64,000 nucleotides of DNA from a virus. Below the pieces are notes generated by a model. The model had not been told where the DNA came from, did no database searches, and saw only the letters and a list, made by a program, of their open reading frames with translations. Positions 51,327 to 56,545 of the stretch are shown piece by piece. The DNA lies in IMG/VR virus record IMGVR_UViG_3300002092_001548, positions 74,209 to 138,208 of that record. One strand, 5' to 3'. The position numbers and the translations under genes are program-made. Each line of letters begins with the position of its first letter. Within the stretch, counting starts at the first letter, position 1.

Positions 51327-51755
51327 ATGCCTATTATAACTGTAGATTTTGACCATACTCTTGCCCACGAGGAGGCAACAGCGCATGGGGCGTGGTTATA
51401 TATTAGCAGTGGAGCACTTGTTCCTATTCAAAAAATTTGTGATCTTGTAATTGAAAAAGCAAAAGAAGGAAACCAAATTGATATTGTTACCTTCCGAGAG
51501 GATAAAGATATTGCAGAAGTTCGCGCATTTGTTAAACGTCAAAAACTCCCAATTACCGATATCTATAATACGGACAGCAAACCAAAGACTCATATTTTAA
51601 AACATTTAAAGTCCACACTACATATTGATGATTCCCTAGCCGTAGTTGTATCGGCAGAACAGGCAGGAATTCCTTGTCTTTTAGTCAATGGTAATGGTGA
51701 ATATGACAATAATTCTACGGCAGACCTGTTTAATCAGATCAAAGTTAATTATTAA
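51327..51755 (+). CDS. HAD-superfamily phosphatase
   Basis: VDFDHTL, IVT.R, K, HIDD. Confidence 0.8.
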   Translation: MPIITVDFDHTLAHEEATAHGAWLYISSGALVPIQKICDLVIEKAKEGNQIDIVTFREDKDIAEVRAFVKRQKLPITDIYNTDSKPKTHILKHLKSTLHIDDSLAVVVSAEQAGIPCLLVNGNGEYDNNSTADLFNQIKVNY

Positions 51756-53315: not shown

Positions 53316-53870
53316 ATGCACAATGCCTTTTTAATAGCTGATCCTCATTTTTCGCATGAGGGTGTTTGTAAGTTCCTAAGAGATGACGGAACGAAGCTAC
53401 GCCCGTGGGATAATGCCGCCGAAATGGACGAGATCATGATTGAGAACTGGAACAAGGCTGTAAGGCCTGTTGATAAGGTTTATGTTTGCGGCGACGTAGT
53501 AATGAAGGCGAAGAAGCAAATTCCAATTTTGAATAGACTTAATGGAAAAAAGGTTCTAATCAAAGGAAACCATGACATAGGTGAGCTAAAAGTTTATCTT
53601 CCCTATTTCTACGATATCCGGGCCTTTCATATTCTTGATAACTTTTGTATTACTCATATTCCTATTCATCCAGATTGTTTGGGTAGGTTCAAGGGCAATA
53701 TTCATGGACACATTCATCAGAGGACTATTATGATGGAGCATGCTGGCTTTAGAGTACCTGACCCTAGATACTTCTGTATTTCTGCCGAGCAGATCGACTA
53801 TACTCCTATCGAGTGGAATGACCTTCGCAAGAAGTTCTACTCACAACTAGGATTACAAATTACAAATTAA
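53316..53870 (+). CDS. calcineurin-like phosphoesterase
   Basis: DPHFSH, GD, GNHD, HIP, HGHIH. Confidence 0.9.
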   Translation: MHNAFLIADPHFSHEGVCKFLRDDGTKLRPWDNAAEMDEIMIENWNKAVRPVDKVYVCGDVVMKAKKQIPILNRLNGKKVLIKGNHDIGELKVYLPYFYDIRAFHILDNFCITHIPIHPDCLGRFKGNIHGHIHQRTIMMEHAGFRVPDPRYFCISAEQIDYTPIEWNDLRKKFYSQLGLQITN

Positions 53871-54435: not shown

Positions 54436-54481
54436 GTGTAATTAACTTTTACTAGGAATATTCCTAGAATGATCTTTGATA
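54436..54481 (+). promoter_or_regulatory. tmRNA leader: GTGTAA, 16-bp palindrome, boxA-like TGATCTTTGATA
   Basis: GTGTAA 54436; CTAGGAATATTCCTAG 54452-54467; TGATCTTTGATA 54470-54481. Confidence 0.65.
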
Positions 54482-55707: not shown

Positions 55708-55785
55708 ATCTATGAATACACTTATATAGTATCTTCGACTCTCAATTAAGGCATTTTAAATTTTTCTTGATATAAAAGTCAAATG

Positions 55786-55834
55786 GTGTAATAATCTATC
55801 TATAGTAGATTTATTTCTATATTGATCTTTGATA
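55786..55834 (+). promoter_or_regulatory. second stable-RNA leader: GTGTAA, hairpin, boxA-like TGATCTTTGATA
   Basis: GTGTAA 55786; AATCTA/TAGATT hairpin 55793-55811; TGATCTTTGATA 55823-55834. Confidence 0.65.
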
Positions 55835-55854
55835 CATTTTAAATTTCGGTTAAA

Positions 55855-55928
55855 TTTCCAATGGTGCGCCCGACCGAATGGCGCATCGAAACCAGAGGAA
55901 ACGTTTGCGAGAGTTCGTCGAAACTCGC
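55855..55928 (+). ncRNA. unannotated structured element
   Basis: TTTCC/GGAAA, TGGT/ACCA, GCGCC/GGCGC stems, then a GCGAG/CTCGC hairpin; GC-rich versus background. Confidence 0.45.
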
Positions 55929-55937
55929 CCCTTTCAT

Positions 55938-56012
55938 GCGTTGGTGGCAGACAAGAAATGCAGCAGTCTCCAAAACTGCCCCATGTGGGAGCGTTACCCA
56001 CCCAACGTGCCA
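55938..56012 (+). tRNA. tRNA-Trp(CCA), non-canonical D/T loops
   Basis: GCGTTGG/CCAACGT, GCAGT-ctCCAaa-ACTGC, T-arm GTGGG-AGCGTTA-CCCAC, G73, CCA. Confidence 0.75.
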
Positions 56013-56022
56013 ATTACGCAGT

Positions 56023-56244
56023 TCCTAATGTGTGCGCGTAACATCAGGAGGAAACTCCCATTAGGACGATTTTACATATTCGGAAGCCCCTCTCCCCGAT
56101 TGCAAGGTTAGGTGAAGGTCTCCGGAGTTCTTGGTGCATACAAAACTCAGACATAATTCGGGACGCTGAAGGTTCTGAGGACAAAAACACCATCCAATTT
56201 ATCAAACCTCCCGCGCCTCTTCAAGAATGCGTAATTCGGGAGGT
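56023..56244 (+). ncRNA. run of four unannotated structured elements
   Basis: TCCTAATG/CATTAGGA junction; CGGA..GCAA..TCCG hairpin; TGGTG/CACCA plus CTCAGA/TCTGAG rod with A-rich bubble; ACCTCCCG/CGGGAGGT stem. Confidence 0.5.
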
Positions 56245-56252
56245 ATTATTTC

Positions 56253-56327
56253 CGCAGAGTAGAGAACTGGTATCTCGTTACGCTCATAACGTAAAGGCAG
56301 TGGGTTCGATTCCCACCTCTGCCACCA
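56253..56327 (+). tRNA. tRNA-Met(CAT), initiator-like
   Basis: C1xC72 mismatch, G2-C71, C3-G70, A11-U24, A73, CCA; anticodon stem TTACG/CGTAA. Confidence 0.85.
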
Positions 56328-56332
56328 TTTTA

Positions 56333-56408
56333 GTTTCAGTAGTGAACTGGAATATCACGCAACGCTACGGACGTTGAGAACAAGGTTCGATTCCTTGCTG
56401 AAGCACCA
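56333..56408 (+). tRNA. tRNA-Arg(ACG)
   Basis: GTTTCAG/CTGAAGC, ctACGga, CCA. Confidence 0.9.
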
Positions 56409-56416
56409 TTTAGTAT

Positions 56417-56540
56417 ACTGAACGGGCCTCTGTACATACAAGCTATCTCACGTTCAGTTTTTTTTATGTGACAAAAAAACAGTAGACTTTTCGCGTTTTC
56501 ACTCCAAATCTAGCGTAAGCGGAACCCACTAGTAGTACCA
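56417..56540 (+). ncRNA. unannotated structured element(s) between tRNA-Arg and tRNA-Gly
   Basis: ACTGAACG/CGTTCAGT stem, T8/A7 hairpin, further stem; ends in ACCA. Confidence 0.4.
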
Positions 56541-56545
56541 ATTAA

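Follow-up and report, generated by a model that had tools for sequence, protein, structure and literature searches.

AbiF (Abi_2) is a HEPN RNase that is controlled in a type III-like manner by an RNA antitoxin, known as abiF RNA, AbiFr or RCd22. A review, in its excerpted text, names AbiF as the ancestor from which Cas13 arose; in the PbAbiF dimer, AbiFr is bound to each monomer, and a single-stranded bulge of the RNA inhibits the RNase (PMC12737573). The excerpts of a further paper describe a prophage AbiF-RCd22 system of C. difficile, i.e. a phage-borne AbiF, where the antitoxin RCd22 contains two abiF motifs and neutralizes AbiF in cis as well as in trans via direct binding (10.1101/2025.04.15.648962). 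The subject of this report is a pair of hairpins of this type, named module 6 and c3, which lie without a toxin gene in the tRNA array of a lake phage, together with the structured RNAs next to them (modules 1 and 3-5). The DNA analyzed, here called the window, is 64,000 nucleotides (nt) long and comprises bases 74209-138208 of a 138,208-base IMG/VR record that is estimated to be 89% complete. The stretch originally flagged in it runs from 55855 to 56244.

Module 6 and c3 share the build of the known abiF antitoxins and belong to the same subtypes. As in RCd22, two motifs are found in one transcription unit. In the window, however, the two copies are two tRNAs apart, whereas the motifs of RCd22 are separated by 19 nt, and no toxin gene follows in the phage. 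A different antitoxin mimic is provided by the Pectobacterium phage phiTE, which escapes ToxIN by expressing pseudo-ToxI, an RNA that mimics the ToxI antitoxin (PMC3475682, from its excerpted text). Pseudo-ToxI is likewise a non-coding phage RNA that resembles a host Abi antitoxin and comes without the toxin; in the hairpins of the window, too, the similarity to an antitoxin is present and the toxin gene is absent. The toxin of that system is ToxN instead of the HEPN protein AbiF, pseudo-ToxI consists of tandem 36-nt repeats, and its function was established experimentally, whereas the function of module 6 and c3 is proposed here by comparison. Finally, the genome of cyanophage S-CREM1 contains an abiF small RNA that matches the Rfam family RF03085 with 51.6 bits, and three phage genomes are among the Rfam abiF hits (PMC9964418). 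The passages of that paper that were at hand report the match and mention no decoy role. In full-text literature searches, no paper was found that proposes phage abiF RNAs as anti-AbiF decoys or an RNA-mimic countermeasure to AbiF. Rince and coworkers reportedly described, in 2000, a DNA region of phage sk1 that protects against AbiF.

Two more distant systems are of interest for the setting of these RNAs. The tRNA cluster of phage T4 encodes small stable RNAs (species 1 and 2, rnaC/rnaD) that are not tRNAs, are released by tRNA processing and have an unknown function. The RNAs of the window likewise lie within a phage tRNA cluster; the two phages belong to different groups, and the likeness is one of description. 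RNA anti-CRISPRs are solitary phage repeat units that mimic CRISPR repeats and have no effector gene. The strategy would be shared, but the target here would be a toxin-antitoxin nuclease, and no CRISPR-repeat family of Rfam was matched.

AbiF-type hairpins of the window and their bacterial counterparts

The two hairpins are located as follows.

56207-56244, + strand: module 6, an abiF-type (AbiFr-like) hairpin without a toxin gene (Rfam RF03085)
56417-56458 (to 56466 with the eight T), + strand: c3 hairpin, a second abiF-like subtype, outside the flagged range and after tRNA-Met and tRNA-Arg

Module 6 was first noticed as an RNA at 56206-56244 that could not be assigned to a known family. The bulged hairpin itself was confirmed by folding, but the lack of a family does not hold. 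At the gathering scores of Rfam nothing is found inside the flagged stretch, and at E values up to 10 the only lines are abiF and noise. The abiF line is module 6, which aligns with the full-length consensus of RF03085 at 34.7 bits, with an E value of 2.3e-4 on 861 nt and of 8.6e-6 for the record as a whole. The original prediction had itself named a hit to a known Rfam family as evidence against novelty, and with this near-threshold match module 6 is therefore not a new family. For modules 4 and 5 the same comparison returned no family.

Both hairpins display the abiF build: an outer helix, an inner helix of 3 base pairs (bp), a loop that starts with GCCUCU and a 6-nt bulge at the 3' side. 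The minimum-energy folds agree with this build, and GCCUCU is invariant in 21/21 aligned hairpins. Compared to shuffled sequences, the fold of module 6 has a z score of -3.8 (0/200 shuffles) and that of c3 a z score of -2.34. The helices are also maintained in relatives. The module 6 type is 86.5% paired, with changes on both sides in 5/9 pairs (14 sequences; covariation 0.366 vs 0.164), and the c3 type is 100% paired, with such changes in 4/11 pairs (6 sequences).

No Abi_2 gene was detected in the 138-kb phage record at E values up to 10. Neither module 6 nor c3 is located upstream of an abiF gene; they are flanked by tRNA and HNH genes. Given the missing Abi_2 gene and the tRNA neighbors, the two hairpins are regarded as orphan abiF copies. 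Because they fall short of the curated score and do not precede an abiF gene, they are filed here as orphan, phage-borne variants of the abiF family, and appear AbiFr-like in every structural feature tested.

Real AbiF genes and their leaders were collected from Bacteroidota. An Abi_2 gene is present in 37/401 sampled genomes, and an RF03085 match in 3/151. The positive control (L126) contains an above-threshold abiF RNA 16 nt upstream of an Abi_2 open reading frame (ORF) of 298 amino acids. Among the 200-nt upstream regions of 30 Abi_2 genes, several leader subtypes can be distinguished, with the hairpin ~20-25 nt ahead of the start codon (16-25 nt when L126 is counted). Two models were made from phage sequences only, R2 from 14 phage-contig hairpins and R3 from 6 c3 hairpins of phages, and searched against 28 of these 30 loci. 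R2 finds the leaders of L137, L139 and L151 (33.1, 33.0 and 29.8 bits; E 5e-6 to 4e-5), and the module 6 subtype leads the Abi_2 genes in L139 and L151. R3 finds the leader of the Abi_2 gene in L155 (26.5 bits, E 4e-5). In local alignments against the Abi_2 leaders, module 6 reaches a score of 36 and c3 one of 33, with shuffled maxima of 23 and 25, respectively. These model matches and alignments show that two of the natural AbiF-leader subtypes are represented in the window by copies without a toxin gene. In its closest relatives, L086 and L096, the hairpin at the c3 position is intermediate between both forms (R2 E 0.04 and 0.1).

Most of the bacterial leaders belong to other subtypes. Together with the 3/151 genomes matched by RF03085 versus the 37/401 with an Abi_2 gene, this indicates that RF03085 under-covers the natural antitoxins, a gap that the current Rfam abiF model leaves. 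Most Abi_2 leaders in L130-L159 are hairpins built around CGCUUCCCGU or ACGCUACCCGU as the core and go unreported by the Rfam abiF model.

Orphan abiF hairpins also occur in other phages. The abiF core pattern was found in 14 viral records, only one of which has an Abi_2 gene; none is present in the three records with a completeness of 90% or more. Four orphan copies lie within tRNA arrays and score 45-50 bits, above the Rfam cut-off. Four orphan copies (L006, L009, L017, L018) are situated ~200-315 nt upstream of a T7-like major capsid gene. The contig pair L015/L016 contains three tandem abiF-type copies, followed in L016 by an ORF for a family B DNA polymerase, while the viral contig L012 contains the motif and an Abi_2 gene. 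A search of the viral contigs with the Abi_2 alignment returned only the query's own locus.

The conserved RNA of modules 4 and 5 and the lineage-specific cassettes

The remaining structured RNAs of the flagged stretch are listed here.

56132-56192, + strand: module 5, a rod of three helices whose A-rich internal loops are conserved; an RNA family without an Rfam entry
56079-56126, + strand: module 4, an inner hairpin joined to an outer helix by an internal loop in which the strand CCCUCUC is conserved
56015-56069, + strand: module 3 cassette, an 8-bp helix (56023-30/56059-66) and a GNRA-capped 4-bp hairpin (56047-58)
55862-55894, + strand: module 1a, a hairpin bulged by 6 nt on its 3' side, with an outer helix of 3 bp, an inner one of 6 bp and a loop of 9 nt
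55907-55928, + strand: module 1b, a 5-bp hairpin with a 12-nt loop

The presence of GC-rich non-coding modules among the tRNAs had been predicted from the letters of the DNA, and this was borne out, with borders correct within two bases. Folding reproduced the nested hairpin and the second hairpin of module 1 (55855-55928, with stems at 55862-55894 and 55907-55928), the 8-bp stem and the GGAG-GAAA-CUCC hairpin of module 3 (56023-56066) and the three-helix rod of module 5. The hairpin module proposed at 56081-56124 is real as well, but its true borders, 56079-56126, are slightly wider. The fold energy of the whole 406 nt is similar to that of shuffled sequences (z -0.67). Taken singly, only module 5 (z -4.0, 0/200 shuffles) and module 6 stand out, and modules 1, 3 and 4 are unremarkable (z -0.30, -1.31 and -0.25).

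Since fold energy alone proves no modules, relatives were collected for comparison. A search with the polymerase yielded 10 related viral records, among them G006, whose polymerase is 93% identical and which carries a homologous stretch with 70% identity to the array of the window. A BLAST search against 50,697 phage records matched tRNA-Met only, and a megablast of 24 kb gave no match. Overall, compensatory changes back the helices of modules 3, 4, 5 and 6; the support for module 1 is weak.

Support from relatives is strongest for module 5. A pattern based on its loops only retrieved 32 loci from metagenomes; apart from a chance match (L072), the other 31 are real. The rod, with helices 56132-36/56188-92, 56146-51/56174-79 and 56157-61/56166-70, was predicted independently by RNAalifold from 26 distinct ungapped sequences. 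In these 26 sequences 96.9% of the cells are paired and both sides have changed in 10/16 pairs; the collecting pattern fixes 19 loop and closing bases, so that these columns, like the pairs 22-55, 27-50 and 37-42 in alignment A2, could not vary by design; the variable stem positions were left free. The covariation amounts to 0.585 vs 0.174 for shuffled alignments (0/500 reach the observed value) and 0.03-0.12 for slid partners. The covariance model of module 5 (R1) finds it in 5/29 viral records, with 87-89 bits and one copy each; it finds none in the complete relatives G001, G003 and G007, nor in the unrelated complete G018. From this distribution, module 5 is an accessory, single-copy element. 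A 16-mer of module 5 returned, among viral contigs, G006 and two chance matches in coding DNA.

In Rfam, module 5 matches no family at E values up to 10, the only line being one of 12.4 bits for NsiR4. It had been likened to a miniature 6S RNA or open-promoter mimic. 6S RNA is typically a rod of ~180 nt whose large central bubble imitates an open promoter. Module 5 measures 61 nt, has two small internal loops and matches no 6S family at E values up to 10, so this likeness is not supported. A Y RNA (YrlA) was also considered. Such RNAs bind Ro60 through a stem and usually come with an rsr (TROVE) gene, often with RtcB close by. This idea was not supported either: no YrlA match is present in the stretch, and neither a TROVE (Ro60) nor an RtcB gene in the record.

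Of 28 distinct sequences, 25 have module 4 immediately 5' of module 5. In the other three (L067, L083, L093) its slot is occupied by an abiF-like hairpin, which scores 33.7 bits with Rfam abiF in L083 and 23.4 bits with R2 in L067. Among 23 sequences, 97.0% of the cells of module 4 are paired, with both-side changes in 6/13 pairs and a covariation of 0.448 vs 0.232 when shuffled (slid-partner controls at most 0.085). It was asked whether module 4 could be a diverged abiF hairpin, as it shares a CCUCU strand and the slot. This idea was not supported, as R2 remains silent at E values up to 10 and no AbiF leader was matched beyond chance in the alignments. Modules 4 and 5 are a two-domain RNA family of ~115 nt, found in phage DNA only in the searches made and absent from Rfam. 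A new conserved phage RNA with strong covariation is thereby added. Most likely, modules 4 and 5 bind another host factor or stabilize the neighboring decoy.

Modules 1 and 3 are built along the same general lines and represent lineage-specific cassettes. Module 1 is known in three copies (the window, L086 and G006). The layout of module 1a is kept in G006 despite a much diverged sequence, and the changes in its strain variants fall in the loop or linker, produce a G-U pair or open one terminal pair. The sequence of module 1b is kept over the three copies, with no compensatory change and one break in G006 (A-U to A.C); in viral contigs, its pattern was found in G006 only. The structure of module 1 is thus weakly supported by relatives. 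In module 3, the 8-bp helix encloses an invariant 15-nt strand and the GNRA hairpin. Its three sequences are 100% paired, with both-side changes in 4/12 pairs and none broken, all owing to one diverged copy. An additional helix (56014-19 with 56036-41), which would form a pseudoknot, is a candidate without covariation evidence because all copies are identical there. A search of viral contigs with the 15-mer of module 3 gave 17 chance matches and no module 3.

Operon layout, the proposed decoy role and competing explanations

The replication genes of the record encode a DNA polymerase III alpha-like protein, a DnaB-like helicase and a ribonucleotide reductase. Every one of the 13 tRNA genes that ARAGORN locates within 49.6-59.3 kb of the window is on the + strand, as is a tmRNA. 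This array has overall ~30% GC, and the ORF-poor stretch 55850-56350 reaches 0.45-0.54 (in 100-nt windows) versus 0.22-0.33 on both flanks. To the left of the flagged stretch lies an HNH endonuclease gene on the minus strand. Two further features are part of the layout.

55767-55795, + strand: promoter-like site (TTGATA, 17 nt, TG-AATAAT), ~60 nt upstream of module 1
56253-56408, + strand: tRNA-Met(CAU) and tRNA-Arg(ACG), canonical and in the same operon (ARAGORN, Rfam)

The promoter-like site, identified by its consensus match, agrees with the consensus in 10/12 positions and has an extended -10 TG; it is likely the start of the RNA operon. The ends of each module are closed by a helix, and the c3 hairpin is directly followed by a run of eight T. 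This hairpin is likely both an antitoxin mimic and the operon terminator. A tRNA on the same strand follows within 400 nt downstream in 25/32 module 5 loci (the window and 31 metagenome loci).

The composition of the operon varies between strains, as was seen in contigs of four DNA runs (regions without contig cover are uninformative). Contigs from 3/4 runs join 56014 to 56070 and excise module 3 exactly; the junction shows that this 55-nt module comes and goes as a unit. Module 3 is likewise missing in L086, contigs of 2/4 runs omit tRNA-Arg, module 6 is missing from G006 as a clean indel, and G006 and others have different elements in the same slots. All this suits accessory modules that can be exchanged as cassettes, rather than modules on which tRNA production depends.

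In the proposed mechanism, tRNA genes and small structured RNA cassettes would alternate in a promoter-driven phage operon. While maturing the tRNAs, host RNase P and the enzymes of the 3' tRNA end would free the intervening RNAs, a release that is suggested by the operon layout. For relatives it has been published that the natural AbiFr hairpin ahead of abiF binds the toxin dimer and holds the toxin inactive, also in trans. Abundant phage copies could then keep AbiF inhibited once the antitoxin supply of the host fails during infection, and abortive infection would be blocked, comparable to the action of pseudo-ToxI of phiTE against ToxIN. The original prediction had suggested decoys for host defense or regulatory proteins, and the former idea fits module 6 and c3 (the latter outside the flagged range) as look-alikes of AbiF antitoxins. 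On balance, and with moderate confidence, module 6 and c3 are read as toxin-less AbiF antitoxin mimics produced from a tRNA operon, which would block abortive infection in the way of pseudo-ToxI. If so, the pseudo-ToxI precedent would extend to a second toxin family, with toxin-less antitoxins wired into a tRNA operon, and a new phage counter-defense would be found against AbiF/Abi_2, a widespread abortive-infection nuclease. The tRNA arrays of phages would then be platforms for the expression and processing of exchangeable RNA cassettes.

Several points weigh against this proposal. Module 6 stays below the curated gathering score of RF03085 (34.7 vs 37 bits), and the c3 hairpin of the window is missed by Rfam abiF and by R2 at E values up to 10, so that its link to AbiF comes from R3, the sequence alignment and one bacterial locus (L155). 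Bacteroidota were chosen from the genome at the center of a chance match, so that an AbiF in the host of the phage is an assumption. A divergent toxin gene could also have escaped notice in a record of 89% completeness. Against the 30 Bacteroidota AbiF leaders, modules 1 (1a and 1b), 3, 4 and 5 score within the shuffled range. The exact loop pattern of module 5 is absent from 185,579 species genomes (two chance matches, with no rod and no tRNAs), from which it follows that, at exact-pattern stringency, module 5 copies no known host RNA. The next tRNA after module 5 is tRNA-Met in 22/32 loci, which could point to a role in tRNA maturation, and the abiF-type hairpins before capsid and polymerase genes could represent another phage use of the motif. 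Lastly, the decoy function is argued from analogy and the release from layout.

A wider reading, possible but doubtful, takes the whole array as a multivalent RNA anti-defense island, where each cassette would be a decoy for a different RNA-controlled or RNA-guided host effector. Modules 4 and 5, 1 and 3 would then mimic the RNA partners of undescribed defense systems, and the cassettes could serve as probes for such systems.

It is also conceivable, though unlikely, that the modules act in cis within the tRNA operon, as processing signals, protectors of 3' ends, a terminator or leaders for tRNA-Met maturation, with no role in anti-defense. In most of the 22 loci mentioned above, the distance from the end of the module 5 pattern to the downstream tRNA-Met(CAU) is 35-42 nt, yet the tRNA that follows module 5 in L083 is Ile-like, and the conservation of the module 5 loops far exceeds the needs of a processing stem. 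The run of eight T after c3 resembles an intrinsic terminator, and abiF-type hairpins also precede the highly expressed capsid genes of T7-like contigs; module 6 and c3, however, match the leaders of real toxin genes in sequence and shape. Modules 1, 3 and 4 are no more stable than shuffled sequences, as would suit this explanation. On the other hand, the complete genomes G001, G003, G007 and G018 lack module 5 and close strains lack module 3 or 6, so none of these is needed for the tRNAs.

Much less probable is that the abiF-type hairpins are antitoxins of a toxin of the phage itself, either a divergent HEPN protein or one encoded in the missing 11%, that serves in abortive infection or superinfection exclusion. 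A phage-borne AbiF does exist, both in the C. difficile prophage (10.1101/2025.04.15.648962, in its excerpted text) and, as motif plus Abi_2 gene, in L012, and the record is incomplete at 89%. Nevertheless, the search for Abi_2 in the record was negative even at E values up to 10, and 13/14 motif-bearing viral records are without the gene, including the three at least 90% complete. In real systems, moreover, the hairpin is found 16-25 nt before the toxin gene, whereas tRNAs and HNH genes flank it here.

That the stretch is a functionless GC-rich spacer in which tRNA genes decay and hairpins arose by chance is hardly credible: the shuffle-like fold of the whole stretch (z -0.67), the unremarkable modules 1, 3 and 4 and the occurrence of degenerate tRNA pieces would allow it, but both-side changes keep the helices paired in 26, 23, 14 and 6 sequences, slid-partner controls collapse, the loops are conserved, and no cloverleaf can be drawn in modules 3-6.

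Some further observations concern the operon and its surroundings. A 12-mer, TGATCTTTGATA, described as boxA-like by an earlier reader, occurs at 55823-55834 and at 54470-54481, i.e. before the array and before the tmRNA; promoter-like sites are found upstream of both, and a near copy of the 12-mer precedes the tRNAs in G006 (L029 ~1100). Between c3 and tRNA-Gly the window has an extra 76 nt (56470-56545), absent from L086 and L096, which contain a CUCCAAA word like that of a Trp anticodon loop and fold as shuffled sequences do (z +0.49). Weak, sub-threshold Pfam hints at 51327-51755 and 53316-53870 point to a phosphatase of the PNKP type (E 0.008) and to a metallophosphoesterase (E 0.004). 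Lying among the tRNA genes, they may be RNA-repair enzymes; the record has no RtcB gene.

Unusual tRNAs and further elements of related arrays

One tRNA between the modules deviates from the canonical form.

55938-56012, + strand: tRNA-Trp(CCA), called by ARAGORN, with a non-canonical elbow (T-loop AGCGUUA, D-loop without GG)

This tRNA-Trp is not listed by the Rfam tRNA model, which scores its homologues at 45.4 bits (G006) and 41.4 bits (L086). Its pattern of D-loop and anticodon loop is shared by 16 viral contigs. By eye, compensatory changes relative to G006 are seen in the acceptor, anticodon and T stems. Non-canonical T-loops (AGCGUUA, GGCAGUA, UGCGAUA) and D-loops without GG are present in many tRNAs of these phages, and their stems covary. 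The examples, located at window 55938-56012, L038 1507-1692, L083 7889-7959 and L029 2018-2088, include Trp, Tyr, Ile-like and Gly(UCC)-like tRNAs. Several of them are missed by ARAGORN or by the Rfam tRNA model. It looks like a remodeled tRNA elbow under selection.

The related arrays contain additional elements. Upstream of tRNA-Trp, a GC-rich non-coding element of ~180 nt with a long terminal helix is found in L029 1285-1460 (G006), L052, L057 and L085; it is absent from the window and has no Rfam match. Between tRNA-Met and tRNA-Trp, G003 (L031 1580-2173) and also G001 have ~600 nt of GC-rich, ORF-free sequence, which matches no Rfam family at E values up to 0.1 and possibly represents a large structured RNA. 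An element shaped like a tRNA, whose acceptor stem has 7 bp and whose CCA is encoded, lies in or before the module 3 slot in L029 1637-1715, L075 and L098. It has CUA in the region of the anticodon loop and is called by neither ARAGORN nor Rfam; it could be a suppressor-like tRNA or a mimic.

Ribozyme-like sequences and tRNA fragments are seen as well. Sub-threshold matches to the type-P1 twister ribozyme (cut-off 67.2 bits) are located in related tRNA arrays at L071 2101-2169 (44.7 bits) and L097 639-710 (minus strand, 40.0 bits). Degenerate tRNA-like pieces occur in these arrays. In L054, L056, L058 and L064, tRNA-Trp is followed by a tRNA inside a long flank hairpin and then by hammerhead-like CUGA...GAAA words, as identified by eye.

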